This document shows, in pieces, positions 10,428 through 22,990 of a stretch of 64,000 nt of DNA; positions within the stretch are counted from its first letter, which is position 1, and every line of letters begins with the position of its first letter. The DNA is from Candidatus Buchananbacteria bacterium. GTDB lineage: Bacteria; Patescibacteriota; Patescibacteriia; Buchananbacterales; UBA6539. The DNA is taken from assembly GCA_013359225.1 (NCBI GenBank), contig JABWCG010000004.1, positions 1,550 through 65,549 on the forward strand, given 5' to 3'. The notes below the pieces were generated by a model. It was given only the letters and a program-made list of their open reading frames with translations, ran no database searches and was not told the DNA's origin. The position numbers and the translations under genes are program-made.

Positions 10428-10588
10428 GCTCTCGCATATCATAAAAATCTCAACACCTCGAAAGTCGGCGATTTAAGGATATTTAAGAGCCTATAGCCCT
10501 ATTATACATCAGCATTTTTGCTGAATGCAACAAAGTTTTATAAGTGTTATAAAGCGATTTGGCTACAAATGAAAGGAGTTGTTTTTCA

Positions 10589-12394
10589 ATGAAAAGAAAA
10601 GGACTTTCGATTTTATTGACATTTGCATTGGTATTCTTTATGTTTGGTAGTACTGTTAATGCAGATAATGTAAAAAAGCCGTTACCTGATTTCACAAAAG
10701 CAAGTACTGTGGAAAAGAAATCTGTATCTACCACTGGAGAAAATGAAAAAAGCATAGAGCTTAAACTTGAAGGTCCAGTTAAATCAATGGCATGGGAAAC
10801 CCAAAAAATCTATCCTGATTTGCAAAAGCATTTAGACAGCCTTAAACCTGATGAGACCATAAAAGTTGACGTGTGCTTGGATTATAATTCGGACGTAACA
10901 GTAGATACATTTGTAAACAAGATTGTGTCCCAAGAAAAAGGTACATTTGGTAATACTAAAATTGAAAAACGCACGGCATTCCATTTCCTTACGGATGTCA
11001 ATAAACAACAAATTGATGCCCTGTCTAAAATGAAAGAAGTAAAATATATCAAGCTACCAGCAGTAAAGCAACAAATTAGCACTCCTAAAAAGACGAATGG
11101 ATTATTAAGCGACAGTGGAATCATCCCAATGATTAATGCATCAACTGAGATGACCGGAGCCAAAAAAGCACGCCAGGATTATGGCGTCACAGGGAATCGT
11201 GATGGAAATGAAACAAGTTACAGCAGCAATGATGTAGTAGTAGCCATCATTGATACTGGGATTGACAATACCCACGTTGATTTAGACGGCGGAAAAGTTA
11301 TCGGCTGGAGAGACTTTGTAAATAATAATGCAACCCCCTATGACGATAATGGACATGGTACGATGGTATCAAGCATCGTGGCGGGAACGGGCGAAGGAGA
11401 TCCGGGCATTGAAGTCGGTTTTGCACCTGGTGCAGCATTGGTTGGAATAAAAGTTGCTGATAGCACGGGAGGTTGGACAATTGATGATCTGGTTGACGGT
11501 ATTGATTGGGCTGTCGCAAACAGAACTACTTTAGGGATAAGAGTCATTAATATAAGCTTGGGTGCATACGGCAACAGCTCTAGTGAAATTGACGCCGTCA
11601 ATACTGCAATTACGAATGCAAATAATGTAGGAATTGCAGTAGTAGTAGCAGCGGGAAATGATGGCCCAGAGTATGATAATATGAGCCAATTGGTTTCATG
11701 TGATGATCCAATAGTAGTTGGTAGTATGGCTGACCCATATGAGGGTGGCTGGTATCCTAGTCTTTTCTCTTCACGTGGGACAGGCACCACAGGTCCTCTC
11801 ATTATGGCTCCTGGAGAAAATATAAGGGCAGCTGAGGCTAATTCGACAAATGAGTATGTTACCGAAAGTGGAACATCTTTCTCAACTCCAGCAATATCAG
11901 GAATTATTGCATTAATGATGGATGCAAGTAACGGAAGCTCAACCCTGAACTTCTATATCGAAGACTTTGGTAAATCAGGCTTCGATCCTGTTTGTGGCAA
12001 TGGTGAGGTTTTGGCTTACGATTCCATCAAGGCAGCTGGAGGATACTCATCAGGCTCCTTTAATGATTATCGAGATCATATTCGCGCTTCTGACACCATG
12101 CAGCAAGGAGATATACATGCTTACGACATTAACGTTTATGCAACAAGTTCCAATTTATATTGGGCAACAACCCTTATTATGACTGATGAGGACAGTGATG
12201 ATTTTGACCTATATATTTGGAATCCAGGGAGTGATCCTTCTGTTGATCCTCCGGATTACTCAAGCACATCAGTCGATCCCCAGGAAGTTATAAGTTTTAA
12301 ACCTACTACTACCGGAGTTTACACTGTTGCTGTTCATGCATTCTCAGGCAATGGTAACTATGCTTTAGACTTTTCTGGCCAAATTCGTCCTTAA
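10589..12394 (+). CDS. Secreted S8 family subtilisin-like serine protease with C-terminal PPC-like domain
   Basis: SD GAAAGGAG; signal peptide VNA; catalytic IIDTGID, NGHGT, AAGN, GTSFSTP. Confidence 0.93.
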   Translation: MKRKGLSILLTFALVFFMFGSTVNADNVKKPLPDFTKASTVEKKSVSTTGENEKSIELKLEGPVKSMAWETQKIYPDLQKHLDSLKPDETIKVDVCLDYNSDVTVDTFVNKIVSQEKGTFGNTKIEKRTAFHFLTDVNKQQIDALSKMKEVKYIKLPAVKQQISTPKKTNGLLSDSGIIPMINASTEMTGAKKARQDYGVTGNRDGNETSYSSNDVVVAIIDTGIDNTHVDLDGGKVIGWRDFVNNNATPYDDNGHGTMVSSIVAGTGEGDPGIEVGFAPGAALVGIKVADSTGGWTIDDLVDGIDWAVANRTTLGIRVINISLGAYGNSSSEIDAVNTAITNANNVGIAVVVAAGNDGPEYDNMSQLVSCDDPIVVGSMADPYEGGWYPSLFSSRGTGTTGPLIMAPGENIRAAEANSTNEYVTESGTSFSTPAISGIIALMMDASNGSSTLNFYIEDFGKSGFDPVCGNGEVLAYDSIKAAGGYSSGSFNDYRDHIRASDTMQQGDIHAYDINVYATSSNLYWATTLIMTDEDSDDFDLYIWNPGSDPSVDPPDYSSTSVDPQEVISFKPTTTGVYTVAVHAFSGNGNYALDFSGQIRP

Positions 12395-12447
12395 AAGCAT
12401 ACTTGCCAAGAATAAATCCAAGTCCAATCTTGGCTCCTTACCTACAG

Positions 12448-12485
12448 TTAAAAGGATTGGTGGATTTCTCCATCAATCCTTTTAA
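12448..12485. terminator. Bidirectional terminator
   Basis: TTAAAAGGATTGGTGGA-TTTC-TCCATCAATCCTTTTAA between convergent genes. Confidence 0.75.
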
Positions 12486-12599
12486 TATATTCCATAAAAT
12501 CAAACCCATGCTTTTCTGTCCAAAGTGATGGATGGTTTTCATGGAGTATGTTCGGTAATGTTTACACATAGAAACTGGTCATATCGTCATTAAGATTAC

Positions 12600-13319
12600 T
12601 TATTTGACTTCAATATCCTTTACTGCCATTAATTCATCAGGGCTTATGTTTTTTCCATTTTTAAGCTTTGGAAGCAATTTCACTGTAATGGAGTATTTTC
12701 CCGGTGGAACTCTGTTACCATTATTGTCCGTGTAACCCCAGACTTCAGAAAATGAAAGTTTTTCATATTTTTTTAATTCGATTTCTATGATGGACATTAG
12801 AAAACCTTTGCCATGGGACCATCTATACACTTCATCTCCATTACTGTCTGTAATAAAAATATCAAACTTTTGACTTGAACGGAAATAAAGAGCCAGGTCT
12901 TTGTCAGAAATATTATGTAGGGAAAAGTCAAGCTTGACCCCGCTGTCTTCCTGTTTAATATCCATTTCTGTATCGAAGACCCCTGTTACAGACTTTTGAG
13001 ATTCCTCTTTTATCTGCTTTGTCCGTTCCATAAATTCAGGGTCTGTTTTTTTTATTGCCGGCAAAGAATTAGTTTCAACGGAAGCCGGTACAGGTTTTAT
13101 TTCAATCGTGCTGTTATCCTGTGGTGTGTCTCGTTGTGTTGGTGACATGCTGATTGGCATCATGCTATTTAATTGACTGACTGTATTTTTAGCGTTAAGC
13201 ATATTTTTGGTTTTGTAGTCAAATCCAAAAATATTCTTATTTAATGAACCCAATAATATTGCCGTACAGCATAAAACCAAAACAGCGATGACTTTCTTGG
13301 TTTTTTTTATAACCTTCAT
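12600..13319 (-). CDS. Exported/membrane-anchored protein with BsuPI (intracellular proteinase inhibitor-like) domain
   Basis: SD GAAAGGA; basic plus hydrophobic N-terminus; C-terminal FSLHN.SDK.L.LYF.SSQKFDI.I.D..G.EVYRWS.GK.F...W......VPPGKY motif. Confidence 0.8.
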   Translation of the reverse strand: MKVIKKTKKVIAVLVLCCTAILLGSLNKNIFGFDYKTKNMLNAKNTVSQLNSMMPISMSPTQRDTPQDNSTIEIKPVPASVETNSLPAIKKTDPEFMERTKQIKEESQKSVTGVFDTEMDIKQEDSGVKLDFSLHNISDKDLALYFRSSQKFDIFITDSNGDEVYRWSHGKGFLMSIIEIELKKYEKLSFSEVWGYTDNNGNRVPPGKYSITVKLLPKLKNGKNISPDELMAVKDIEVK

Positions 13320-13358
13320 AATATTACCCATCCTTTCTTCAAATTCATTTTTCATTTT

Positions 13359-13387
13359 ATTAGACGTAGAAGCTGTATCATTTGTTC
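13359..13387 (-). promoter_or_regulatory. Putative ECF sigma promoter for the BsuPI gene
   Basis: GAAC-N17-CGTCTAAT on the minus strand. Confidence 0.5.
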
Positions 13388-13472
13388 TGTATAAGTTCAA
13401 TTTTCTACATCTCCTAAAACTTTTCGACCTGTGCAATAATAGCATAAACATATTTAAACTATCTAAACTAAC

Positions 13473-14453
13473 TTATATATTTTCCAGCCATACCCGAAAT
13501 TCCTCCAGCGTCATGTCCCCTTTTAGGCACAATTCCCGTTTTTTTCTTGCCTCCTCCGCCCATTCGTAAAAAGCTTCCTTCGTGATTTTTCCATACTTAA
13601 TCCATGCAAACCGTTTTTTGTAGGCTTTACTGTATGCTTTTAAAGCCGGTGTGTCGGCTTTCTTTTTCTCCCATAGGCGAAGCGCCCCCATTTCCTTACA
13701 GGTGCGTCCAGTGCTGTCAAAGGGCCTGTCGCAGTATTCCGTGTTGATATGTCCGGTCAGGGCAAAGAATTGATTACAGTGCTTGCAGACACGGAAGCGT
13801 ATCTCCCGTTTGATACATTCGCGCACAAAAAAATCAATGATATCGTAAATGCTTTTTGGGTATAGGACTTCGGTAAAGGTCATTGAATCAACCACTTCAA
13901 AGCTCATGCGCAGGGGTTGAAATTCAAATACTTCCGGGTCACTCAGCCTTCTATCCCTTTTGGGGTTATAGTAATCTGCCATTTTCTTTTGTATGGGTTC
14001 ATCGGGAGAGAGGATATCCAGCACATGGTTCCATAAAGCCATAAGCTGACGTTGCATGGTGGAAAGGTTCATGGGTAGGTGGGTTAGCTTCTTGCGGGGA
14101 AGCAAATCCAGAACATCTTTAAAGCCTTGTTTTTCAGCCTGTTCCAGCTTGTCCAGCCATTCCAGGCGAAGGAATTCAAAATAGACATGTACTTTTGAAA
14201 GCGTGTTTAAATCATCCTTAATCTCCTCCACCAGTTTCAAGTCTTTATCGGGATACAGGTTATAAAGGTTTTCCCCCATCCGATTAAATAACTCACTATA
14301 AGGCCAAATGTCAAGGTATAGAATATCCATCAGGCTTTGCGAAAATGCGAAGCTCTTTTTTGTTGTCTTCTGCCCGTCCCCATATTCAAAATATTCTTTT
14401 CCATCGGATATATACACTTTATAGCTACATGCCAGCTTAATCTCTAAAAGCAT
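13473..14453 (-). CDS. DUF6076-like protein with Cys-rich zinc-finger-like C-terminus; 5' end uncertain or chimeric
   Basis: RVCKHCNQFFA...EYCDR...TCKEMGA and F.EW..EA..KR motifs; the first residues MLLEIKL may be host-derived. Confidence 0.7.
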   Translation of the reverse strand: MLLEIKLACSYKVYISDGKEYFEYGDGQKTTKKSFAFSQSLMDILYLDIWPYSELFNRMGENLYNLYPDKDLKLVEEIKDDLNTLSKVHVYFEFLRLEWLDKLEQAEKQGFKDVLDLLPRKKLTHLPMNLSTMQRQLMALWNHVLDILSPDEPIQKKMADYYNPKRDRRLSDPEVFEFQPLRMSFEVVDSMTFTEVLYPKSIYDIIDFFVRECIKREIRFRVCKHCNQFFALTGHINTEYCDRPFDSTGRTCKEMGALRLWEKKKADTPALKAYSKAYKKRFAWIKYGKITKEAFYEWAEEARKKRELCLKGDMTLEEFRVWLENI

Positions 14454-14457
14454 AGTT

Positions 14458-15195
14458 TTAACGACTACCAATAATTAACGCACCCGAAACCCCATTAACG
14501 GTAAAATCAATTTTTTTAAAATAAATTCGGCGTCCAGTTTCTCTAATCAACGCCCTAACTTTTGAGACAGCTGGCAACCTGACCGCCAAACTAACATACG
14601 GAGGTTTTTGCGACGAACCATACAGTTCGTTGCCGCGAATATCAGCAATGCGGCGCGGATAGGTATCCAGTGCCAACAAATTCTGGCCATACCGTGCCGG
14701 GCAATAGTTTCGAAAGGGTCGATAATACGGGGCTTCATATTTTTCCCACATTTTAATTAGCTGAGTCGGCGTATGCAAATTCCCTCGACAATTTAAAGCG
14801 CCGCAGCGACAAATGTGCTCCCGGCACTCCCCCGCCCGACATAACAAAACATCATACAAATAGTTAACGGTCAACTCTTCGCCCGGAAAAATTCGTCTCA
14901 GGGCAAAATAAATCACGTGACCCCGATACGAATGCATAGCGCAATTCGGGGCACACGCGTGATTAATTAAATGAATGCCAATTTGTTTTGGGTCGGGCAG
15001 CACAATCAATTTGTCGGTGCAGTGCATGGCGTAAAAACTTTTTTCGTTTTCTTGCCCTTCGCGCTGTTCAGAAATGACCGTGCCCAAATAATCACCGATC
15101 ACCGTACCGGGGTTAATTTCTTTTTTAGCAAAAACCCCACGGCCCTTACCTTTAATTTTTTTGACCTGCCAATAATCGGCAGAAAGTAAAAACAT
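14458..15195 (-). CDS. SET-domain protein-lysine methyltransferase
   Basis: Start MFLLSAD at 15195; GKGRGVFA, INHACAPN, GEELTVNY and post-SET CRCGALNCRG. Confidence 0.88.
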   Translation of the reverse strand: MFLLSADYWQVKKIKGKGRGVFAKKEINPGTVIGDYLGTVISEQREGQENEKSFYAMHCTDKLIVLPDPKQIGIHLINHACAPNCAMHSYRGHVIYFALRRIFPGEELTVNYLYDVLLCRAGECREHICRCGALNCRGNLHTPTQLIKMWEKYEAPYYRPFRNYCPARYGQNLLALDTYPRRIADIRGNELYGSSQKPPYVSLAVRLPAVSKVRALIRETGRRIYFKKIDFTVNGVSGALIIGSR

Positions 15196-15207
15196 ATAGT
15201 TTAATGC

Positions 15208-15426
15208 TGGCGGAGAGGACAGGATTTGAACCTGCGAGGACTTGCGCCCATCCCGTCGTTCACGAACGACTGGACGAGATCCCACATTAATCGGAAGGGG
15301 CGAGATTCGAACTCGCGAGACCGTTGCCGGTCTACCGCTTTTCGAGAGCGGCGCTTTCGACCACTCAGCCACCCTTCCGATTAATGTGGGACAAGCCGTC
15401 GCCTTAAACCACTCGGCCACCTCTCC
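15208..15426 (-). tRNA. Interrupted Ser-type tRNA body (outer), anticodon arm disrupted by insertions; intron-containing or pseudo-tRNA
   Basis: 5' half GGAGAGGTGGCCGAGTGGTTTAAGGCGACGGCTTG (15426-15392); 3' part ...GGGCGCAAGTCCTC-GCAGGTTCAAATCCTGT-CCTCTCC-G-CCA (15250-15208); 7-bp acceptor stem, G73 and encoded CCA. Confidence 0.65.
15292..15378 (-). tRNA. tRNA-Ser(CGA), nested inside the outer tRNA; no encoded CCA
   Basis: GGAAGGG/CCCTTCC acceptor stem, D arm, CCGCT-CT-CGA-AA-AGCGG anticodon arm, long variable arm, GCGAG-TTCGAAT-CTCGC T arm, G73. Confidence 0.93.
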
Positions 15427-15508
15427 ATTGCTTATTATTAACACATTTAATCAGTTTTTACAATTTAGCGTTTTTTTGTTATAATTTAAAACAGAATTGT
15501 TAAAAAAT

Positions 15509-16375
15509 ATGTCAAAAATTAGAAAAGTTGTTATCCCGGTTGCCGGCCTTGGCACTCGCTTCCTGCCCGCAACCAAAGCCCAGCCGAAAGAAATGTTACC
15601 GGTGGTTGATAAACCAATCATCCAATACATTGTCGAAGAGGCGGTCGCGGCCGGCATTACTGACGTAATTTTAGTAACCGGCTCAACCAAACGCGCGATT
15701 GAAGACCATTTTGATCGCAATGAAAACCTGGAAAACCATCTTAAAAAAAATGGCAAATCTAAATACTACCAGGCTGTCAAAGAGGTTGCTGAACTGGCAA
15801 ACTTTATTTTTATTCGACAAAAAGGGCCCTATGGCAACGGCACACCGGTACTTAATACTAAAGCAGTGATCGGCGATGAGCCATTTGCCGTCGTGTGGGG
15901 AGATGATATTTGGGATTGCCCAAGCCGGCCCCACATTAAACAGCTTATTGATGTTTATGAAAAATATGGCGACCCGGTAATCACCGCTTATAAGACCGAC
16001 GCCGAAGGCACATCAAAATACGGCATTATTGAGGGCACGGAAGTTGAACCAAACGTCTATCAGGTCAAATCAATCGCCGAAAAACCAGGTCCTCAAAAAG
16101 CTAAAAGCCGCATCGCTTCATTTGGCGGCTACATTTTTACGCCAGACATTTTTAATGAGCTGGAAAAAACCCCTCTGGGCAAAGGCGGCGAGCTGTGGCT
16201 GGTTGATGCAATTGCCCGACTACTCAAAAAACGCCCGATTTACGCGAAGATTATCGATGGCCAGCTCTACGACACCGGCTCAAAGCTTGGTTGGTTGAAA
16301 GCGAATGTTGAGTTTGGTCTCAAAGACAAAGAAATCAATAAAGAATTCAAAAACTTTTTGAAACATAAGCTATGA
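15509..16375 (+). CDS. galU: UTP--glucose-1-phosphate uridylyltransferase
   Basis: VIPVAGLGTRFLPATKAQPKEMLPVVDKP signature. Confidence 0.93.
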   Translation: MSKIRKVVIPVAGLGTRFLPATKAQPKEMLPVVDKPIIQYIVEEAVAAGITDVILVTGSTKRAIEDHFDRNENLENHLKKNGKSKYYQAVKEVAELANFIFIRQKGPYGNGTPVLNTKAVIGDEPFAVVWGDDIWDCPSRPHIKQLIDVYEKYGDPVITAYKTDAEGTSKYGIIEGTEVEPNVYQVKSIAEKPGPQKAKSRIASFGGYIFTPDIFNELEKTPLGKGGELWLVDAIARLLKKRPIYAKIIDGQLYDTGSKLGWLKANVEFGLKDKEINKEFKNFLKHKL

Positions 16376-17754
16376 AAATAAAAACGAAACTTTATCTTTT
16401 AATTTTATTAGCCGTGGTGGCGGTTTCTTCCGGATTCAGCTGTAAATTTATTACGCCGTCGCAAAAGGAGTTGCTAGAACCGATTGAATTAACTTGGTGG
16501 GGTGTTACTGATGAGCCGGAAAATTTCTACGAGGTCATCGGCGATTACCAGGCCGCACACCCAAACATTAAAATTACTTACCGAAAATTACGCCTAGAAG
16601 AGTTCGAAAATGAGTTGCTGGAGGCCTTGGCCGAAGACCGCGGTCCGGATATTTTTTCCATTCATAACACCTGGGTAAATAAATATTTATCAAAAATTGA
16701 ACCCCTGCCGGCCAAAACCACCCTGGCATATCAAGTTACAAAAACCAGCCTCGGCATCAAACAAGAAACACTCATTGAAGTCCGAGACGTTCCGGCCATT
16801 ACCGCACCACAACTCAAAGAAACATTCTTAGACGTTGTCTATAATGATGTTGTGCGCGACAACAAAATTTACGGCCTGCCGCTGAGCGTTGATACGTTAG
16901 TCCTATTTTATAATCGTGACCTGCTCAATAATGCCGGCATTCCTCTGCCGCCCAAGACCTGGAATGAATTGCAAGAACAAGTTAAACGCTTGACCTTCCA
17001 AAATCAAAACGGCGACCTCATCCAATCCGGTGCTGCTCTGGGAACTGCCGAAAATATTGAGCGCAGTTCTGATATTGTTTCGCTGTTGATGATGCAAAAC
17101 GGTGCGGAAATGATTACCGGCCGAAACGTCACGTTTGGTGTTGTTCCATCCACATTCCCCGACCAAACCTATAATCCAGGTCCTGAGGCAGTCCGCTTTT
17201 ACACCGACTTTGCCAACAGTAGTAAAGAAGTATATTCATGGAATAAAACTTTTTCCAACTCCATTGACGCCTTTGCCGAAGGAAGAGTTGCCATGATCTT
17301 TGGTTATAACTATCACATCCCTATTTTAGAATCCAAACGCCAGGGCAAGCTAAACTATGGTATTAGTAATATGCCGCAAATTGAGGGCCGGACCGAAGTC
17401 AACTTTGCCAACTACTGGGTTAACACCGTTTCCAAAAAAAGCGCTCACATTAATGAAGCGTGGGATTTTATTCAATTCATAACAACTAAAAAAGCGGAAA
17501 CTGAAAAGTACCTAGCCAAAACCCTCCGGCCTACGGCACTACGAACACTGATTCAAGATCAAACCAACAACGATGCGTTAGCAGTATTTGCCAAGCAGCT
17601 TCTCACCGCTAAAAGCTGGTACCGCGGCGCTGACGCCGTGGCAGCGGAAAATGCTTTAAACGAAATGATTGAATCAATTTTAGCCGGTAACGATCTGCAA
17701 GAATCGGTAAATTTAGCCGCTCTAAAAATTCAACAAACACTTCAAACGCTATGA
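16372..17754 (+). CDS. Extracellular solute-binding lipoprotein (sugar-binding family 1)
   Basis: Lipobox-like GFSC; GPDIF, IYGLPLSVDTLVLFYNRDL, FAEGRVAM, AWDFIQF. Confidence 0.85.
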   Translation: MKIKTKLYLLILLAVVAVSSGFSCKFITPSQKELLEPIELTWWGVTDEPENFYEVIGDYQAAHPNIKITYRKLRLEEFENELLEALAEDRGPDIFSIHNTWVNKYLSKIEPLPAKTTLAYQVTKTSLGIKQETLIEVRDVPAITAPQLKETFLDVVYNDVVRDNKIYGLPLSVDTLVLFYNRDLLNNAGIPLPPKTWNELQEQVKRLTFQNQNGDLIQSGAALGTAENIERSSDIVSLLMMQNGAEMITGRNVTFGVVPSTFPDQTYNPGPEAVRFYTDFANSSKEVYSWNKTFSNSIDAFAEGRVAMIFGYNYHIPILESKRQGKLNYGISNMPQIEGRTEVNFANYWVNTVSKKSAHINEAWDFIQFITTKKAETEKYLAKTLRPTALRTLIQDQTNNDALAVFAKQLLTAKSWYRGADAVAAENALNEMIESILAGNDLQESVNLAALKIQQTLQTL

Positions 17755-18218
17755 AAAAAATTATTATAATATTTTTACTGGCTATCCTCGGATTGACCCT
17801 GGGCAGCCCTGCCTTAGCCCAAGAAAATAAAAAACCTTGGGTTGAAGAAATTTTAGGCGGTCCGCTGATTCCCTCCGGGTGCACCGAAAGCCAAGCTAAT
17901 GCCGGTTCTAGCCAAGTAACCAAATGCGGCCTTAATGAAATGCTGCAGGTTGGTATTAACTTTTCAAAAATCCTGCTCGCCCTAACCGGCAGCGCTGCTT
18001 TATTGATGTTTGTGTATGGCGGCGCGATGTTTATCATGGCGGCCGGCAAACAAGAAATGGTACAAAAAGGTAAAGCGGCGATGACTGCCGCCGTCATCGG
18101 CATTGTTATCATTTTAGGGGCCTATCTAATTGTCAACTTTACCATTCTTGCCCTGACTAAAGGCGAAGTCGGCGGCAATGCCACCATCTTTGGCCAACCT
18201 TTCAATCAAACTCCATAA
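17751..18218 (+). CDS. VirB2/TrbC-like pilin with Cys-containing variable region
   Basis: Signal peptide PALA; YGGAMFIMAAGKQEMVQKGK..MTAAVIGIVII motif. Confidence 0.8.
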   Translation: MKKIIIIFLLAILGLTLGSPALAQENKKPWVEEILGGPLIPSGCTESQANAGSSQVTKCGLNEMLQVGINFSKILLALTGSAALLMFVYGGAMFIMAAGKQEMVQKGKAAMTAAVIGIVIILGAYLIVNFTILALTKGEVGGNATIFGQPFNQTP

Positions 18219-18351
18219 GATTGCCGCTAAAACATCTGGGGTTTTCATTGACACTAGCAACCAGTATTTATTATAATTTAGATAAGGTTATTTAAAATTA
18301 AGGCTGCAAGCGAAAGCAACACAGCTTCCAACCGTGAAAGGGGGTGAGAAA

Positions 18352-18711
18352 ATGAAAAAAATTGCGATTTTAACAACTTTAGGCGTAATCTTTGCCTTGA
18401 GTGCCATGCCAGTTTTGGCGATTGACACCGGCTTAAATTACGGCACTTACACTGGTTTGGGAACAAAGGACTTACGAGAAGGTATCATGAACGTCGTCAA
18501 CGTCTTGCTTGGATTCTTAGGCATTTTAGCAATCATTATTATCCTGTGGGGAGGTTTCCGCTGGCTTACTTCGGGCGGTAACGAAGAAAAAGTTGGTGAA
18601 GCTAAAAAGATTATCACCGCCGGTATTATCGGTTTGGTCATTATCTTTACGGCCTACGCCATCGCCAGCTTCGTCATCGTTCAGTTGATTCAGGCCACTG
18701 GCGCTCAATAA
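18352..18711 (+). CDS. VirB2/TrbC-like pilin, putative major pilin copy 2
   Basis: Close paralogue of 6007-6366; SD AAAGGGGGTGA; GGFRWLTSGGNEEKVGEAKKII. Confidence 0.87.
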   Translation: MKKIAILTTLGVIFALSAMPVLAIDTGLNYGTYTGLGTKDLREGIMNVVNVLLGFLGILAIIIILWGGFRWLTSGGNEEKVGEAKKIITAGIIGLVIIFTAYAIASFVIVQLIQATGAQ

Positions 18712-18752
18712 TAACTAGTTTGAGTTTCAACGGTTATTAGATACATTCAAGC

Positions 18753-18786
18753 TGGGGAGACCTTCATAACTTTGGGGGTCTCCCCA
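18753..18786 (+). promoter_or_regulatory. Strong hairpin after the major pilin gene (partial terminator or mRNA stabiliser)
   Basis: TGGGGAGACCTTCA-loop-TGGGGGTCTCCCCA, with no long U-tract. Confidence 0.6.
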
Positions 18787-18790
18787 ATTG

Positions 18791-19207
18791 ATGAAAATTT
18801 ATAAAACCATGAAAATTTTAATTACCACAATCGTTATATTTTCAATCTTATTTTTGGTAGTCGCGCCAGATATACTACTAGCCGCCTGCCAAGGAACTGA
18901 CTGCGTCACCGCCGGACTGGAAGTAACTACCGAAAAAGCCGGGCTTGACACCGGTGCCAACGCCACCAACCTGCCCCGAATCATTGGTCGCGCCATCAAT
19001 GCTCTATTTGGCATTATCGGCGTTATTTTTCTAACCGTCGTCTTAATTGGCGGCTACGAATGGATGACATCCGGCGGCAGTGAAGAAAAAATCGCCAAGG
19101 GCAAAAAATTTATCATCAACGGCATCAACGGCATGATCGTTATTTTTTTGGCCTACGCCTTAGTCTACGTCATAATGTTTTCTCTAAGTCGCGCTACGGG
19201 CAGTTAA
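18791..19207 (+). CDS. VirB2/TrbC-like pilin
   Basis: GGYEWMTSGGSEEKIAKGKK motif; alternative start at 18809. Confidence 0.83.
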   Translation: MKIYKTMKILITTIVIFSILFLVVAPDILLAACQGTDCVTAGLEVTTEKAGLDTGANATNLPRIIGRAINALFGIIGVIFLTVVLIGGYEWMTSGGSEEKIAKGKKFIINGINGMIVIFLAYALVYVIMFSLSRATGS

Positions 19208-19208
19208 C

Positions 19209-19622
19209 ATGAAATTTACTTTTTTACAAAAAAATTTTTTGGTTGTCAGCTTATTGATACTGACGACGTTTTTAATGACAACTCATTTTGTCGCCGCCAG
19301 CACCATGGACCAGGTTAACAGCGGTTTTGCCCAGACTGGTGAAGAAGCAGGCTTTCCAACTCAAGGTGGCAAACCAAAAGTGGAATTTAGTCAGGCTTTT
19401 ATCAACTACGTCAACAGCATGATTGGCCTCATGGGTTTACTGTTTATGGTTTTAGTCATCTACGGCGGTTGGCTTTGGATGTCTGCGCGCGGCAGCGAAG
19501 AACAGGTTACTAAAGCCAAAAAACTTATTATTAACGCGGTCATTGGCTTAGCGGCGGTCATTGGCGCGCGCCTGGTGGTAGAATTAGTTATTATTTATTT
19601 GAGCCGAACTTTTGTCAGTTAA
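19209..19622 (+). CDS. VirB2/TrbC-like pilin
   Basis: YGGWLWMSARGSEEQVTKAKK motif. Confidence 0.83.
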   Translation: MKFTFLQKNFLVVSLLILTTFLMTTHFVAASTMDQVNSGFAQTGEEAGFPTQGGKPKVEFSQAFINYVNSMIGLMGLLFMVLVIYGGWLWMSARGSEEQVTKAKKLIINAVIGLAAVIGARLVVELVIIYLSRTFVS

Positions 19623-19623
19623 C

Positions 19624-20025
19624 ATGAGTATGTTACAAAAAACTTTTTTTATTGCCCTGGTTCTGACGCTTGTTTTTCACGGTGTCGGGGTATTAGCTGC
19701 CGGCACACCTATTGGCGAACAAATGGGCGGCGGCCTGAACACCGCCATTGACGAAGTTTATGGCAGAGACGTTACGGTTGATCAAACCACATTTAACAGC
19801 GGTTTAATTACAATTATTAACACCCTGCTAACGTTTACCGGCATCATTTTTTTGCTACTGATCATTTATGCCGGGTACTTATGGATGACCGCACGCGGCA
19901 ACGAAGAACAGGTTGACCGGGCAAAAAAAATTACCCGCGAGGTAGTAATTGGTTTACTGCTAATACTGCTGGCCCGAATTATTACTGAATATATTTTGAT
20001 TCAAATTGGCAAAGCCACTAACTAA
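19624..20025 (+). CDS. VirB2/TrbC-like pilin
   Basis: YAGYLWMTARGNEEQVDRAKK motif. Confidence 0.83.
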   Translation: MSMLQKTFFIALVLTLVFHGVGVLAAGTPIGEQMGGGLNTAIDEVYGRDVTVDQTTFNSGLITIINTLLTFTGIIFLLLIIYAGYLWMTARGNEEQVDRAKKITREVVIGLLLILLARIITEYILIQIGKATN

Positions 20026-20030
20026 AAAGT

Positions 20031-20426
20031 ATGAAAACTATTTACACACTCTTATTACTCAGCATCATTACTGCCGCCCTAGCAACACTAACGCCGGTAC
20101 TGGTCCTGGCACAGGGCGGTGATATTACTCAACAAATGCAAAACAGCCTAGCAAACGTCAGCTTGCCAAGCACTAACAAAGACGAGGGTCGGGTTGAAGT
20201 CATTGTCGGGAAAGTAATCGGCGCATTTTTGAGTATTTTTGGTATTATTTTCATGGTATTAATTATTTTTGGCGGCTATAAATGGATGATGGCTTCCGGC
20301 CGTGAAGAAGAAATTTCCAAGGCCAAAGCTACGATTCGCTCAGCGGTTATCGGCTTAATTATTGTTTTAGCGGCCTACGCTATCACCTTCTTTATTACTA
20401 ATGCTCTACAACAAGCCGTTGGCTAA
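20031..20426 (+). CDS. VirB2/TrbC-like pilin
   Basis: GGYKWMMASGREEEISKAK motif. Confidence 0.83.
   Translation: MKTIYTLLLLSIITAALATLTPVLVLAQGGDITQQMQNSLANVSLPSTNKDEGRVEVIVGKVIGAFLSIFGIIFMVLIIFGGYKWMMASGREEEISKAKATIRSAVIGLIIVLAAYAITFFITNALQQAVG
20347..20386 (+). repeat. 40-bp exact direct repeat, second copy at 20751-20790
   Basis: TTATCGGCTTAATTATTGTTTTAGCGGCCTACGCTATCAC in two adjacent pilin genes. Confidence 0.9.
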
Positions 20427-20431
20427 AATGT

Positions 20432-20848
20432 ATGAATGACACACTTAAAAAAGCGACAATTTTTTTCACCGTTATTGCGCTGCTTCTGGCCTTAAACATT
20501 GGATCGGTTTTAGCCCAAGGCACGCTTGACTTGACCGGTAAACTGAAAAACGTCGGCGGTAACGCTGGCTATTCCGCCGAGGTAACTGAAAACACGCTTC
20601 CTAACACCGTCGGAAATATTATCAAGGCCCTGCTATCCCTTTTGGGTATTATTTTTATGTCTTACATTGTGTACGCAGGATATCTCTGGATGACCGCGGC
20701 TGGCAACGATGAAAAAATCACCAAAGCTAAAGCGATTCTTCGCGGCAGCATTATCGGCTTAATTATTGTTTTAGCGGCCTACGCTATCACTCAATTTGTG
20801 CTCGTTTCAATAACTGAGGCAACCGGGTATAGCTCCGCAGGAAGCTAA
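20432..20848 (+). CDS. VirB2/TrbC-like pilin
   Basis: YAGYLWMTAAGNDEKITKAK motif. Confidence 0.83.
   Translation: MNDTLKKATIFFTVIALLLALNIGSVLAQGTLDLTGKLKNVGGNAGYSAEVTENTLPNTVGNIIKALLSLLGIIFMSYIVYAGYLWMTAAGNDEKITKAKAILRGSIIGLIIVLAAYAITQFVLVSITEATGYSSAGS
20687..20727 (+). repeat. 41-bp exact direct repeat, second copy at 21130-21170
   Basis: TGGATGACCGCGGCTGGCAACGATGAAAAAATCACCAAAGC in two adjacent pilin genes. Confidence 0.9.
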
Positions 20849-20862
20849 TAAACTTCAACTTT

Positions 20863-21303
20863 ATGTTTAGTAAACTTTACCGCTCAATTATTCTGACCCT
20901 TTTGCTACTAGCCGTCGTTGGCATCACGTTCTCATTTGGTGCTATAGACACCAATGCCCAGGAAGGGTTAAGTCTTGATGAAATGACCAAACAAGCGGCC
21001 GGCGCTGCGGGCTACAGCGAAGAAACCAACGAAACCACGTTTGCCAAAATTGTTGGTACGGTAGTTCGGGTATTTCTTTCGTTGCTCGGTGTCATTTTTA
21101 TCTCTTACACTGTATATGGCGGGTTCTTATGGATGACCGCGGCTGGCAACGATGAAAAAATCACCAAAGCAAAGCACATTATCCGCGACGGCATTATCGG
21201 CTTAATCGTCATTCTGTCAGCAGCCGGCATCTACTACTTTATAGCCGAGTTTTTAATTGACACCTCTGGCACTTCCGGCGGCACTATTCCTGGCGGAGGT
21301 TAA
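20863..21303 (+). CDS. VirB2/TrbC-like pilin
   Basis: YGGFLWMTAAGNDEKITKAK motif. Confidence 0.83.
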   Translation: MFSKLYRSIILTLLLLAVVGITFSFGAIDTNAQEGLSLDEMTKQAAGAAGYSEETNETTFAKIVGTVVRVFLSLLGVIFISYTVYGGFLWMTAAGNDEKITKAKHIIRDGIIGLIVILSAAGIYYFIAEFLIDTSGTSGGTIPGGG

Positions 21304-21314
21304 AAGACAAATCT

Positions 21315-21734
21315 ATGAATAAAAAAATAAAATTTTTACTGACCTTTCTGCTGCTACTAGGCATTTTAACCCTGAACGTGACGCCGGTTTTGGCGCAAGG
21401 CCTCCAGGACCCGGCTAAACAAAAACTTGATGCTCAAAACGAAGCTTTTTTGGCTGAAACCGGACTTGGAACTCAGACGAGTTTGTCACTGATGGTAAGC
21501 GCCATCATCCGAGTATTTCTGTCTTTTCTGGGAGTAATCTTTGTTGTTTTAATTATCTACGCCGGTTTTATGTGGATGACGTCAGCCGGCAATGAAGATA
21601 AAATCAGCAAGGCCAAAAAAATTATGGCTTCCGCCATTATTGGTTTAGCAATCGTACTGGCGGCATACGCCATCACCTACTTTGTACTTGATCAGCTACT
21701 TGAAGCAACTAAGGGCGGCCAAGGACTCGACTAA
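21315..21734 (+). CDS. VirB2/TrbC-like pilin
   Basis: YAGFMWMTSAGNEDKISKAKK motif. Confidence 0.83.
   Translation: MNKKIKFLLTFLLLLGILTLNVTPVLAQGLQDPAKQKLDAQNEAFLAETGLGTQTSLSLMVSAIIRVFLSFLGVIFVVLIIYAGFMWMTSAGNEDKISKAKKIMASAIIGLAIVLAAYAITYFVLDQLLEATKGGQGLD
21570..21610 (+). repeat. 41-bp exact direct repeat, second copy at 22832-22872
   Basis: ATGTGGATGACGTCAGCCGGCAATGAAGATAAAATCAGCAA in the two pilins flanking the lipoprotein gene. Confidence 0.9.
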
Positions 21735-21754
21735 TCAATCTTGATAAAATAAAT

Positions 21755-21797
21755 AGAGGGTGCACTATTTTTTCCGTTCTGGAAAAGTGCACCCTCT
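21755..21797. terminator. Bidirectional terminator
   Basis: AGAGGGTGCACT...AGTGCACCCTCT inverted repeat between convergent genes. Confidence 0.7.
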
Positions 21798-21825
21798 TTG
21801 AAAAAACAAAGGCTCGCTAGGCTCG

Positions 21826-22404
21826 CTAGGGAGCGACGATTGACCAGTCGCAGGTAAAACCCTCAACTTGGTTATCCGCTTCCACGGTGTCGATATCGCG
21901 CCAACCTCGCAGATAAGCGCTGCTTGATCCGGCGCGATAGAGTTGCACGTAGTACCGATCAGCCGGCAAAAACGTCCACTCTTTAGCACCAGGACCAATG
22001 GTTCGAACCAGCGCGAACTGGCCATAACTGACCTCAAACCGTACTGGCCGGCTTGAAGCGTTATAAAGGACCCCCCGATAGAACTTAAAGGGTCCTCGCG
22101 GCAATGTCGCTGACGGATCAGCATTCAAATCTGGCAAAGCCTTCCAGTAGCTTTCGCCCTGAAGCTCCCAGAATTGCCGCACCGCTTCGTCGCGGTTGGC
22201 GCGCGCCTTCATCCAAGCCTCGACGAAATTCTGGTTGGAGTCGGTATAATGCTCTACTCCTCCCACGTGCAGCTCAGCAGCCTGATAGCCGACCCAATAC
22301 TTGCTGTCTGCGTTCTGCTTTGCCACCAAGGCCGCTCGACCAGTTGGCGTCACGGTACTGCAACCAACCGCCAGCAGCAACACTATTGCACAAATCTGTT
22401 TCAT
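21826..22404 (-). CDS. Hypothetical lipoprotein (GC-rich solo gene inside the pilin array)
   Basis: MKQICAIVLLLAVGC lipobox; SD AGAGGAG; own promoter. Confidence 0.75.
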   Translation of the reverse strand: MKQICAIVLLLAVGCSTVTPTGRAALVAKQNADSKYWVGYQAAELHVGGVEHYTDSNQNFVEAWMKARANRDEAVRQFWELQGESYWKALPDLNADPSATLPRGPFKFYRGVLYNASSRPVRFEVSYGQFALVRTIGPGAKEWTFLPADRYYVQLYRAGSSSAYLRGWRDIDTVEADNQVEGFTCDWSIVAP

Positions 22405-22477
22405 CGTAAAACCGCTCCTCTTGGTTATCGGCCGCTAGGCCTAATTTTTCAATTCAAAGGGCACTAAAGAACTTTGA

Positions 22478-22506
22478 ATATTAACATAAATTAGCAAATT
22501 TGTCAA
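22478..22506 (-). promoter_or_regulatory. Sigma70 promoter with extended -10
   Basis: TTGACA-N17-TAATAT with TGn. Confidence 0.65.
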
Positions 22507-22570
22507 TAAATATTCCCCTAAAAACAGATAAAATGGTATAATTACCTTACTTAACTTTTAAAATACCTGT

Positions 22571-22990
22571 ATGACCAAAACAGCTTACCTATTTTTACAT
22601 GCCCTAATGGTTTTTACGCTCTTGCTCAGCCTAGTACCGGTTAATGCTCTGGCAGTTAGTGGCGACATTACTGATTTAATGAAAGATCAGCTCGAACCAA
22701 TTGAAGAAGTCTATGATCCGCGCGACGACGTTACCCCATCAACTTTTTCTAAAAACGTTGCTCAAATGATTAATGTCGTGCTTGGATTTCTAGGAATTGT
22801 TTTCCTCATTTTAATCCTCTACGCTGGCTGGATGTGGATGACGTCAGCCGGCAATGAAGATAAAATCAGCAAAGCCAAAAAAACAATGGTTGCCGCCATT
22901 ATCGGAGTGGCGATCATTTTAGCAGCGTACGCCATCTCCTACTTTGTTATTAATCAATTATTGATTGCTACCAAGGGCGAAGGATTATAA
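22571..22990 (+). CDS. VirB2/TrbC-like pilin
   Basis: YAGWMWMTSAGNEDKISKAKK motif. Confidence 0.83.
   Translation: MTKTAYLFLHALMVFTLLLSLVPVNALAVSGDITDLMKDQLEPIEEVYDPRDDVTPSTFSKNVAQMINVVLGFLGIVFLILILYAGWMWMTSAGNEDKISKAKKTMVAAIIGVAIILAAYAISYFVINQLLIATKGEGL

Follow-up and report, generated by a model that had tools for sequence, protein, structure and literature searches.

Group I introns in the anticodon loops of tRNA genes have reportedly been found in Patescibacteria (in a 2025 preprint by Nakagawa et al.), and they resemble the locus described here in that a tRNA gene is interrupted by an insert in its anticodon arm. A logic of disruption and complementation has been shown experimentally for phages: in tRNA-dependent lysogeny, as set out in Guerrero-Bustamante and Hatfull 2024 (PMC10865867), a host tRNA gene is broken and the element carries a tRNA of matching isotype. 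REP and REPIN sequences, which are accompanied by RAYT transposases, are described in PMC3733652 and PMC3116915 as short non-autonomous palindromes with a four-base tag at one end, predicted to form single-stranded hairpins. Finally, tiny single-domain GIY-YIG genes of the Ssn nucleases accompany hairpin repeats termed NTS or SRM (PMC11893778); the main text of that paper mentions tRNA and Patescibacteria 0 times.

Here we describe, in a 64,000-nt stretch of Candidatus Buchananbacteria DNA (the window), a tRNA-Ser gene that is split by a 116-nt hairpin holding a complete second gene for the same tRNA. The genome (G000) is assembled into 5 contigs that total 1.01 Mb, at a completeness of 97%. 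We think it probable that this gene-less hairpin is a non-autonomous mobile element, which destroyed the cognate tRNA-Ser(CGA) gene and now supplies its function. A literature search, outside most subscription papers and supplements, returned no description of tRNA-carrying hairpins or of nested bacterial tRNA genes.

Anatomy of the nested locus

The sequence of the minus strand from 15426 to 15208 matches the tRNA-in-tRNA nesting of the original prediction. ARAGORN and Rfam make a single call across it, the inner tRNA-Ser(CGA) at 15378-15292 (RF00005, 60 bits). The features of the locus are as follows.

15396-15426, minus strand: 5′ half of the resident (outer) tRNA-Ser(CGA), with acceptor strand, D arm and first 4 anticodon-stem bases; it matches the uninterrupted Ser(CGA) at 31/31 positions in G008, G003 and G019, and at 28/31 in G017
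15392-15395, minus strand: CTTG, four additional bases on the insert's 5′ side that either belong to the element or are a decayed target copy; missing in the uninterrupted allele, and many relatives' cassettes are preceded by CTTG or a similar 4-mer
15379-15391, minus strand: 5′ arm of the inverted repeat, 13 bp; 13/13 pairs with 15292-15280, and related arms surround Ser genes of relatives
15292-15378, minus strand: inner complete tRNA-Ser(CGA), 87 nt, CCA-less, the only intact Ser(CGA) of the assembly (ARAGORN, RF00005); 61-64 of 87 identical to outer-type genes
15280-15291, minus strand: 3′ arm of the inverted repeat, its first pair supplied by G73 (sequence, allele comparison and folding)
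15275-15279, minus strand: outer bases 31-35 (TCTCG), remains of the CGA anticodon loop; equal to bases 31-35 of four reference genes, and G014 and G021 resume likewise
15251-15274, minus strand: second, empty 24-nt hairpin repeat in place of outer bases 36-44; near-identical copies occur in G010, in G015 and, at C3:381-404, next to this genome's 5S rRNA gene
15208-15250, minus strand: 3′ part of the outer tRNA, with variable arm, T arm, acceptor strand, G73 and CCA; 42/43 identical to G008
15434-15463, minus strand: weak sigma-70-like site, candidate promoter for the nested transcript, with a consensus match of only 9/12
15497-16375, plus strand: galU, divergent neighbour and synteny marker (TIGR01099 above cut-off); present at 17/25 relatives' Ser(CGA) loci
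14458-15195, minus strand: SET-domain gene directly downstream, outside the element (PF00856, E 8.6e-19); a SET match occurs at only 1/25 related loci

Relative to the uninterrupted allele, the order is outer bases 1-30, CTTG, arm, inner tRNA, arm, outer bases 31-35, the 24-nt hairpin standing in for outer bases 36-44, and the 3′ part of the outer gene. The 116-nt unit, composed of CTTG, a 13-bp arm, the CCA-less Ser(CGA) gene and the other arm, sits inside the outer anticodon stem, contains no ORF and has 29 nt that are not tRNA. As had been claimed from the sequence, the 13-nt flanks are perfect inverted repeats (13/13 Watson-Crick pairs) that lengthen the inner acceptor stem to 20 bp, the 87-nt inner tRNA (15292..15378) has no encoded CCA, and the outer gene retains an intact acceptor stem, D arm, T arm, G73 and CCA. 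The further claim that ATTAAT is a 6-bp target duplication does not survive comparison: the motif is absent from the uninterrupted gene and homologous arms have other bases at this place; it belongs to the arm, not to the target. The two hairpins are preceded by the 4-mers CTTG and CTCG; the CTTG position could hold a decayed copy of TCTCG, yet relatives have TTCA, CATG or TTTA there. Folding is far stronger than in shuffled sequence, both for 226 nt as RNA (z = -6.6) and for the 116-nt unit as DNA (z = -8.6), with 0/200 shuffles as good in each case.

The whole unit is spanned by a 522-nt Logan contig of run X1, possibly the source sample, which equals 15113-15634 with 0 differences. Contig X3, from another study, covers 15318-15800 without difference and includes the 5′ junction only. 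Both are contigs, not raw reads. Only the 5′ junction is bridged independently; the 3′ junction is not.

The outer gene and its ancestral locus

When the 236-nt region was searched against 61 genomes, both outer halves proved to be parts of one uninterrupted 88-90-nt gene that six members of the same family carry (G003, G004, G008, G009, G017 and G019) and that is called Ser(CGA) in each. Against the gene of G008, the outer 5′ part is identical at 31/31 positions and the 3′ part at 42/43, whereas the inner tRNA matches this type at only 61-64 of 87 and is therefore not a recent local copy. The outer anticodon, which the original prediction could not reconstruct, is CGA on the evidence of the uninterrupted allele. 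Because galU adjoins 17/25 of the Ser(CGA) loci tested, whether uninterrupted, armed (see below) or plain, this is the ancestral locus, and the outer shell is, as judged by these alignments, the family's ordinary tRNA-Ser(CGA) at its galU-linked site. Nine outer bases (36-44) are missing from the 219 nt, and with them the anticodon stem's 3′ strand; the shell is otherwise hardly decayed, and the locus is likely a young case. The genome also has Ser genes with anticodons TGA, GGA and GCT, and the inner gene (CGA) completes the set. A MAFFT alignment was left unused, since it matched the reference genes to the inner tRNA.

Downstream of the tRNA, positions 10483-15195 of the window hold genes for SET-domain, DUF6076 and BsuPI-domain proteins and for a protease of family S8. 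Their GC content locally falls to 33-39%, and they are possibly a cluster acquired on the tRNA's 3′ side. About ten tandem small pilin-like ORFs, one of them confirmed as T4SS_pilin/TrbC, lie at 17751-22990 and are interrupted by an unrelated opposite-strand ORF at 21826-22404; like the size of the genome, these tandem genes point to a member of the Patescibacteria.

Armed tRNAs in related genomes

We scored arms as the number of pairs in the 13 positions past the acceptor stem and call a tRNA armed when this number is at least 11. Armed tRNAs recur in 5/5 genomes surveyed of this class and are nearly always CCA-less: the armed fractions of CCA-less and CCA-bearing tRNAs are 11/14 and 0/31 in this genome, 4/10 and 0/27 in G001, 8/18 and 0/18 in G013, 6/18 and 1/14 in G021, and 4/25 and 1/7 in G042. 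These counts take in the tRNAs on fetched loci (37/48 Rfam matches in G001, 36/47 in G013, 32/48 in G021, 32/51 in G042 and all in G000) and are descriptive only, because kin are not independent. Among CCA-less control tRNAs, none is armed in Nocardia (0/13), in a Flavobacteriales genome (0/19; 0/32 for these non-CPR controls together) or in a genome of the same phylum and another class (G083, 0/32), and four further genomes of the phylum have CCA on 125/126 genes and no arms.

To lessen circularity, we searched metagenomes and 401 genomes of the phylum with a pattern for the 3′ junction only, which covers one Ser arm family. Besides the genome's own, it gave 61 matches; 27 are without a whole tRNA (chance matches, 3′ fragments and contig ends) and the other 34 represent 28 distinct whole Ser genes, with a complementary 5′ arm in 24/28. 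Of the 4 matches within the 401 genomes, one is this genome's own, one is a genuine nesting (G311), one is a 3′ fragment and one is due to chance; viral contigs gave 0 matches. For 29 non-Ser genes selected on pairs 1-8, pairs 9-13 are paired at 0.86-0.97, with background reached from pair 16. A looser scan for the pattern in contigs returned 120 loci, namely 1 armed Ser gene (L167, left out of the tallies), 1 unrelated tRNA and loci without tRNA, and we draw no distribution from it.

The same nesting, with different sequences, occurs in many relatives. Clear cases, with remains of the outer gene on one or both sides, involve Ser(CGA) in G014, G021 (where it is doubly nested) and G311, and Ser(TGA) in G018, G024 and G027. 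Beyond Ser, they affect Pro and Asp (G013), Ala (G042), Val (G001) and, in this genome, Ile(TAT). Related Ser arms are found across genera and families, and empty versions of the same hairpins occur in dead tRNA copies and other repeats. In this genome, each of the 11 armed tRNAs is the sole copy of its anticodon in the assembly, and these single-copy genes include the only Asn, both Gln, Ala-TGC, Ser-TGA and Ser-GCT.

Several individual loci deserve mention. At C3:21100-21260 of this genome, an armed tRNA-Ile(TAT) lies between the decayed halves of an older Ile(TAT) in a second nesting; besides Ile(TAT), no more than two CAT tRNAs are present in the genome, a hint of AUA reading without lysidine. 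At the 5′ end of a Gly(TCC) gene of G001 (L054), an empty hairpin occupies the 5′ strand of the acceptor stem and its right arm rebuilds the tRNA's first five bases, which makes it a possible intermediate in arm attachment. Outside the window, C2:5794-6075 of this genome holds two odd tandem tRNA-like genes, one with an enlarged anticodon arm; the second is Pro(TGG)-like, with encoded CCA and about 110 extra bases after the start of the D arm, followed by a palindrome. At G042 C1:135600-136200 (L245), atypical tRNA-like matches are densely clustered, and three of these measure 104-133 nt. The assembly of this genome shows no convincing gene for Leu(TAA), Leu(TAG) or Gly(GCC), and no tmRNA was called; Gly(GCC) and Leu(TAA) occur together in G001, so that an assembly gap may hide them here.

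Anticodon match between inner and outer genes

For 36 armed Ser genes, we compared the bases at which the outer gene resumes with unarmed reference genes. The outer anticodon is the same as the inner one in 14 cases and different in 0, with 1 tie (TGA/CGA) and 21 unreadable junctions. The outer genes are interrupted between positions 30 and 36, in many cases immediately 3′ of CTTG. A looser and noisy remnant test on 65 armed tRNAs of all kinds gave 17 with the same anticodon, 1 with the same amino acid, 10 with another and 37 with none; 2 of the 10 are unmasked neighbouring genes, and at a score of at least 12 there remain 8 with the same anticodon and only those 2 others. The window's own case is unreadable in the one test and 'none' in the other, because bases 36-44 are lost.

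The inner and outer anticodon stems differ in the window's cassette and in L395, L396 and L409 despite the same anticodon, and inner and outer genes are nearly identical in L425, L426 and L436, as would be expected had they arisen in place. Wobble makes Ser(CGA) dispensable, and complementation alone is therefore a weak filter for this anticodon.

Maturation of armed tRNAs

Since each armed tRNA of this genome is the sole copy of its anticodon, the armed precursors must be matured. A gene of the CCA-enzyme family, RNase P RNA and RNase III are all present in the genome; for RNase Z, neither it nor any of 20 relatives (21 genomes) gave a match above cut-off. Pairing of the leader that extends the acceptor stem inhibits RNase P, according to PMC9433436. 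There is thus a processing problem: eleven single-copy tRNAs have to be freed from a 13-bp leader-trailer helix in a genome where RNase Z was not found. Ala(TGC) is 75/75 identical between this genome and G001, and its arms differ and are still paired. Arms are not needed for maturation as such, because many CCA-less tRNAs are unarmed (21/25 in G042 and 32/32 in G083).

Search for a mobilising enzyme

The profiles searched for a mobiliser were PF01797, PF01541 and PF00589, and no enzyme among them could be tied to the cassette. Y1 (HUH) transposase (PF01797) is present in 37/61 genomes and was not found in G000, G001 or G013; footed hairpins, counted with a detector too strict for a census, number 1 in 30 Y1 loci of relatives and 3 in this genome. 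The two tyrosine-recombinase genes of this genome are on contig C3, another contig than the locus.

Tiny GIY-YIG genes are common, and tRNA genes occur at 10/30 of the best GIY-YIG loci compared with 4/30 Y1 loci, often with hairpin-broken partial copies. For these tRNA-linked small nucleases, Pfam shows the GIY-YIG domain only; the Ssn nucleases are of family cd10448. In L364, the order is 5′ remnant, GIY-YIG nuclease gene, armed tRNA-Asn and 3′ remnant. A GIY-YIG neighbour is not enriched at armed tRNAs (5/70, against 11/129 for CCA tRNAs and 6/82 for unarmed CCA-less ones), and the Ssn hairpin (SRM) consensus has 0 matches at the locus and occurs at 1/30 GIY-YIG loci. A tiny stand-alone GIY-YIG nuclease beside hairpin-broken tRNA copies, acting in trans, is our tentative candidate for the mobiliser and the weakest step of the proposal; by analogy, Ssn chemistry plausibly fits a hairpin-directed cutting of single-stranded DNA.

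Stand-alone GIY-YIG genes of 80 residues have an intact tRNA on one side and a partial tRNA copy broken by hairpins on the other in L352, L356, L361, L364, L371, L377 and L378. This genome has a stand-alone GIY-YIG gene directly before tRNA-Trp (C2:42191-42406), with no obvious hairpins.

Alternative explanations

The original prediction had offered an intron-like insert, cut from the RNA to give two tRNAs, and an outer shell that is itself a chargeable tRNA-like carrier or processing scaffold. The outer shell, with its acceptor stem, D arm, T arm, G73 and CCA intact, does fold, as these readings would have it. A 5-bp stem with a 7-nt loop and U33 results from 6 of 960 single cuts, which yield one product apart from a 1-nt variant. 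This sole product with a canonical-shaped arm, however, has C37, a 30-nt extra arm and the anticodon GTC, an Asp anticodon on a Ser body, and it takes its 3′ strand from the 24-nt repeat that is found elsewhere; a canonical CGA arm arises from 0/960 cuts. The second hairpin has replaced outer bases 36-44, and the outer gene therefore cannot be spliced back. Group I and II intron models gave no match at gathering score in the window and none up to E 5 over 14900-15800, and neither the splicing endonuclease EndA (PF01974) nor RtcB (PF01139) was found in the genome. ARAGORN, with introns allowed and lowered stringency, made 258 mostly spurious calls with no outer gene on contig C4, and on excision products it was non-discriminating (644/820 called at -ps90 and 443/1139 at default). 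In relatives, the outer halves decay freely, with every stage seen. Against the loss of bases 36-44, the enzymes and intron models not found and this decay, the intron idea does not stand, and the two readings, insert and charged shell, are together very improbable. Misassembly of two Ser(CGA) alleles is scarcely credible: tRNA genes are frequent assembly breakpoints and the genome is in 5 contigs, but a 522-nt unitig covers the whole unit without difference, a second study bridges the 5′ junction, and the structure recurs with other sequences in many genomes and metagenomes.

A more serious alternative is that the structure was made in place and kept as a processing stem. An empty hairpin would have entered the gene, a local tRNA copy would have been captured by template switching or recombination, and the arms would persist for maturation from the 20-bp stem, the unit never travelling. 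Some cassettes with nearly identical inner and outer genes speak for this, as do unrelated arm sequences that are all about 13-15 bp long, the identical Ala(TGC) of G000 and G001 (75/75) with different but paired arms, and the presence of RNase III where RNase Z is below cut-off in 21 genomes. We nevertheless consider it unlikely, given that the window's inner and outer genes share only 61-64 of 87 bases, that related Ser arms occur across genera and families, and that many CCA-less tRNAs are armless (21/25 in G042, 32/32 in G083). Template-switch repair, too, can keep palindromes perfect without selection. A collapsed prophage or integrative element, left by tRNA-dependent integration with all lost but the tRNA, would follow the same logic as in PMC10865867, and a lower-GC gene cluster does lie downstream (33-43% GC per kb over 9-14 kb, compared with 44-45% around the tRNA). 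The halves are only 116 nt apart, however, with an inverted repeat and no direct att core; both tyrosine-recombinase genes are on another contig, viral contigs have 0 matches to the 3′-junction pattern, and the same compact form is seen at many tRNAs. We regard such a remnant as highly improbable.

Proposed mechanism

The original prediction had as its third option a tRNA that moved into a palindrome within a decaying tRNA gene. Of the three options this one comes closest; the order of events was likely another, in which the tRNA came to sit in the loop of a hairpin unit and the unit then entered an intact gene with the same anticodon, the shell being 31/31 and 42/43 identical to the gene of G008. 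Under the mobile-element reading that we favour, a tRNA folded as a hairpin closed by its acceptor stem (bases 1-73) would enter the loop of a small palindrome, leaving the unpaired CCA behind. The composite could move as one single-stranded hairpin, or spread by recombination via old tRNA halves, and would enter the anticodon arms of tRNA genes. An insertion into a single-copy tRNA gene would be kept if the same tRNA is brought along, and the same-anticodon rule would mainly reflect survival, that is, the retention of insertions that complement the gene they broke. The old outer halves would then gain further hairpins and decay while the arms stay paired, and the inner tRNA would be cut from its 20-bp stem and completed by the CCA enzyme.

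A broader proposal can be framed, which we put forward as rather doubtful: that tRNA genes are replaceable mobile cassettes in one class of Patescibacteria, where gene-less hairpins would home into the gene with the same anticodon, would have taken a quarter of this genome's tRNAs, essential ones included, and would force a non-standard maturation from a sealed 20-bp stem, for example by an RNase III cut, without RNase Z.

Comparison with known systems

The locus shares with tRNA-dependent lysogeny a broken host tRNA and an element-borne tRNA of the same isotype. That system (PMC10865867) involves a whole phage with a tyrosine integrase and an att core of about 10 bp, whereas the unit described here is 116 nt with no protein and no prophage body, its inverted arms are continuous with the acceptor stem, and many different tRNAs are hit. 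With REP/REPIN it has in common the short non-autonomous palindrome, the four bases at one end and the predicted single-stranded hairpin, and with MITEs the terminal inverted repeats, here 13-bp perfect arms. The REP/REPIN tag, however, is GTAG or CGTC in PMC3733652 and CTTG-like here; a search of this genome for a Y1 transposase (PF01797) found none; an entire tRNA is carried as cargo, and the target is a tRNA gene; and in contrast to the high copy number of REP/REPIN, each arm sequence in this genome is single-copy and the 24-nt hairpin occurs twice. The tiny single-domain GIY-YIG genes that accompany hairpin repeats recall Ssn, but the SRM consensus, as given in PMC11893778, does not fit the hairpins here, and the cassette is without a nuclease gene. 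Unlike a group I intron in a tRNA, the insert has no ribozyme core, nor room for one in the 29 nt besides the tRNA; splicing cannot rebuild the host gene, and the insert supplies a tRNA rather than removing itself.

This analysis contributes a comparison with the empty allele, a genome-wide split between CCA and arms with its controls, a test of anticodon agreement, the observation that arms are of uniform length, and an inventory of enzymes. Because annotation tools call the inner gene only, the class is invisible in standard annotations; flanking arms would offer a marker of tRNA gene turnover, and the proposed element a reason for the many CCA-less tRNA genes in this bacterial class. The element acts like tRNA-dependent lysogeny and resembles REP/REPIN and MITEs, yet lacks defining features of tRNA-dependent lysogeny and of REP/REPIN; if our reading is true, it would be about the smallest possible case of 'addiction by replacement', a hairpin plus the tRNA that makes its insertion harmless, with no protein at all.
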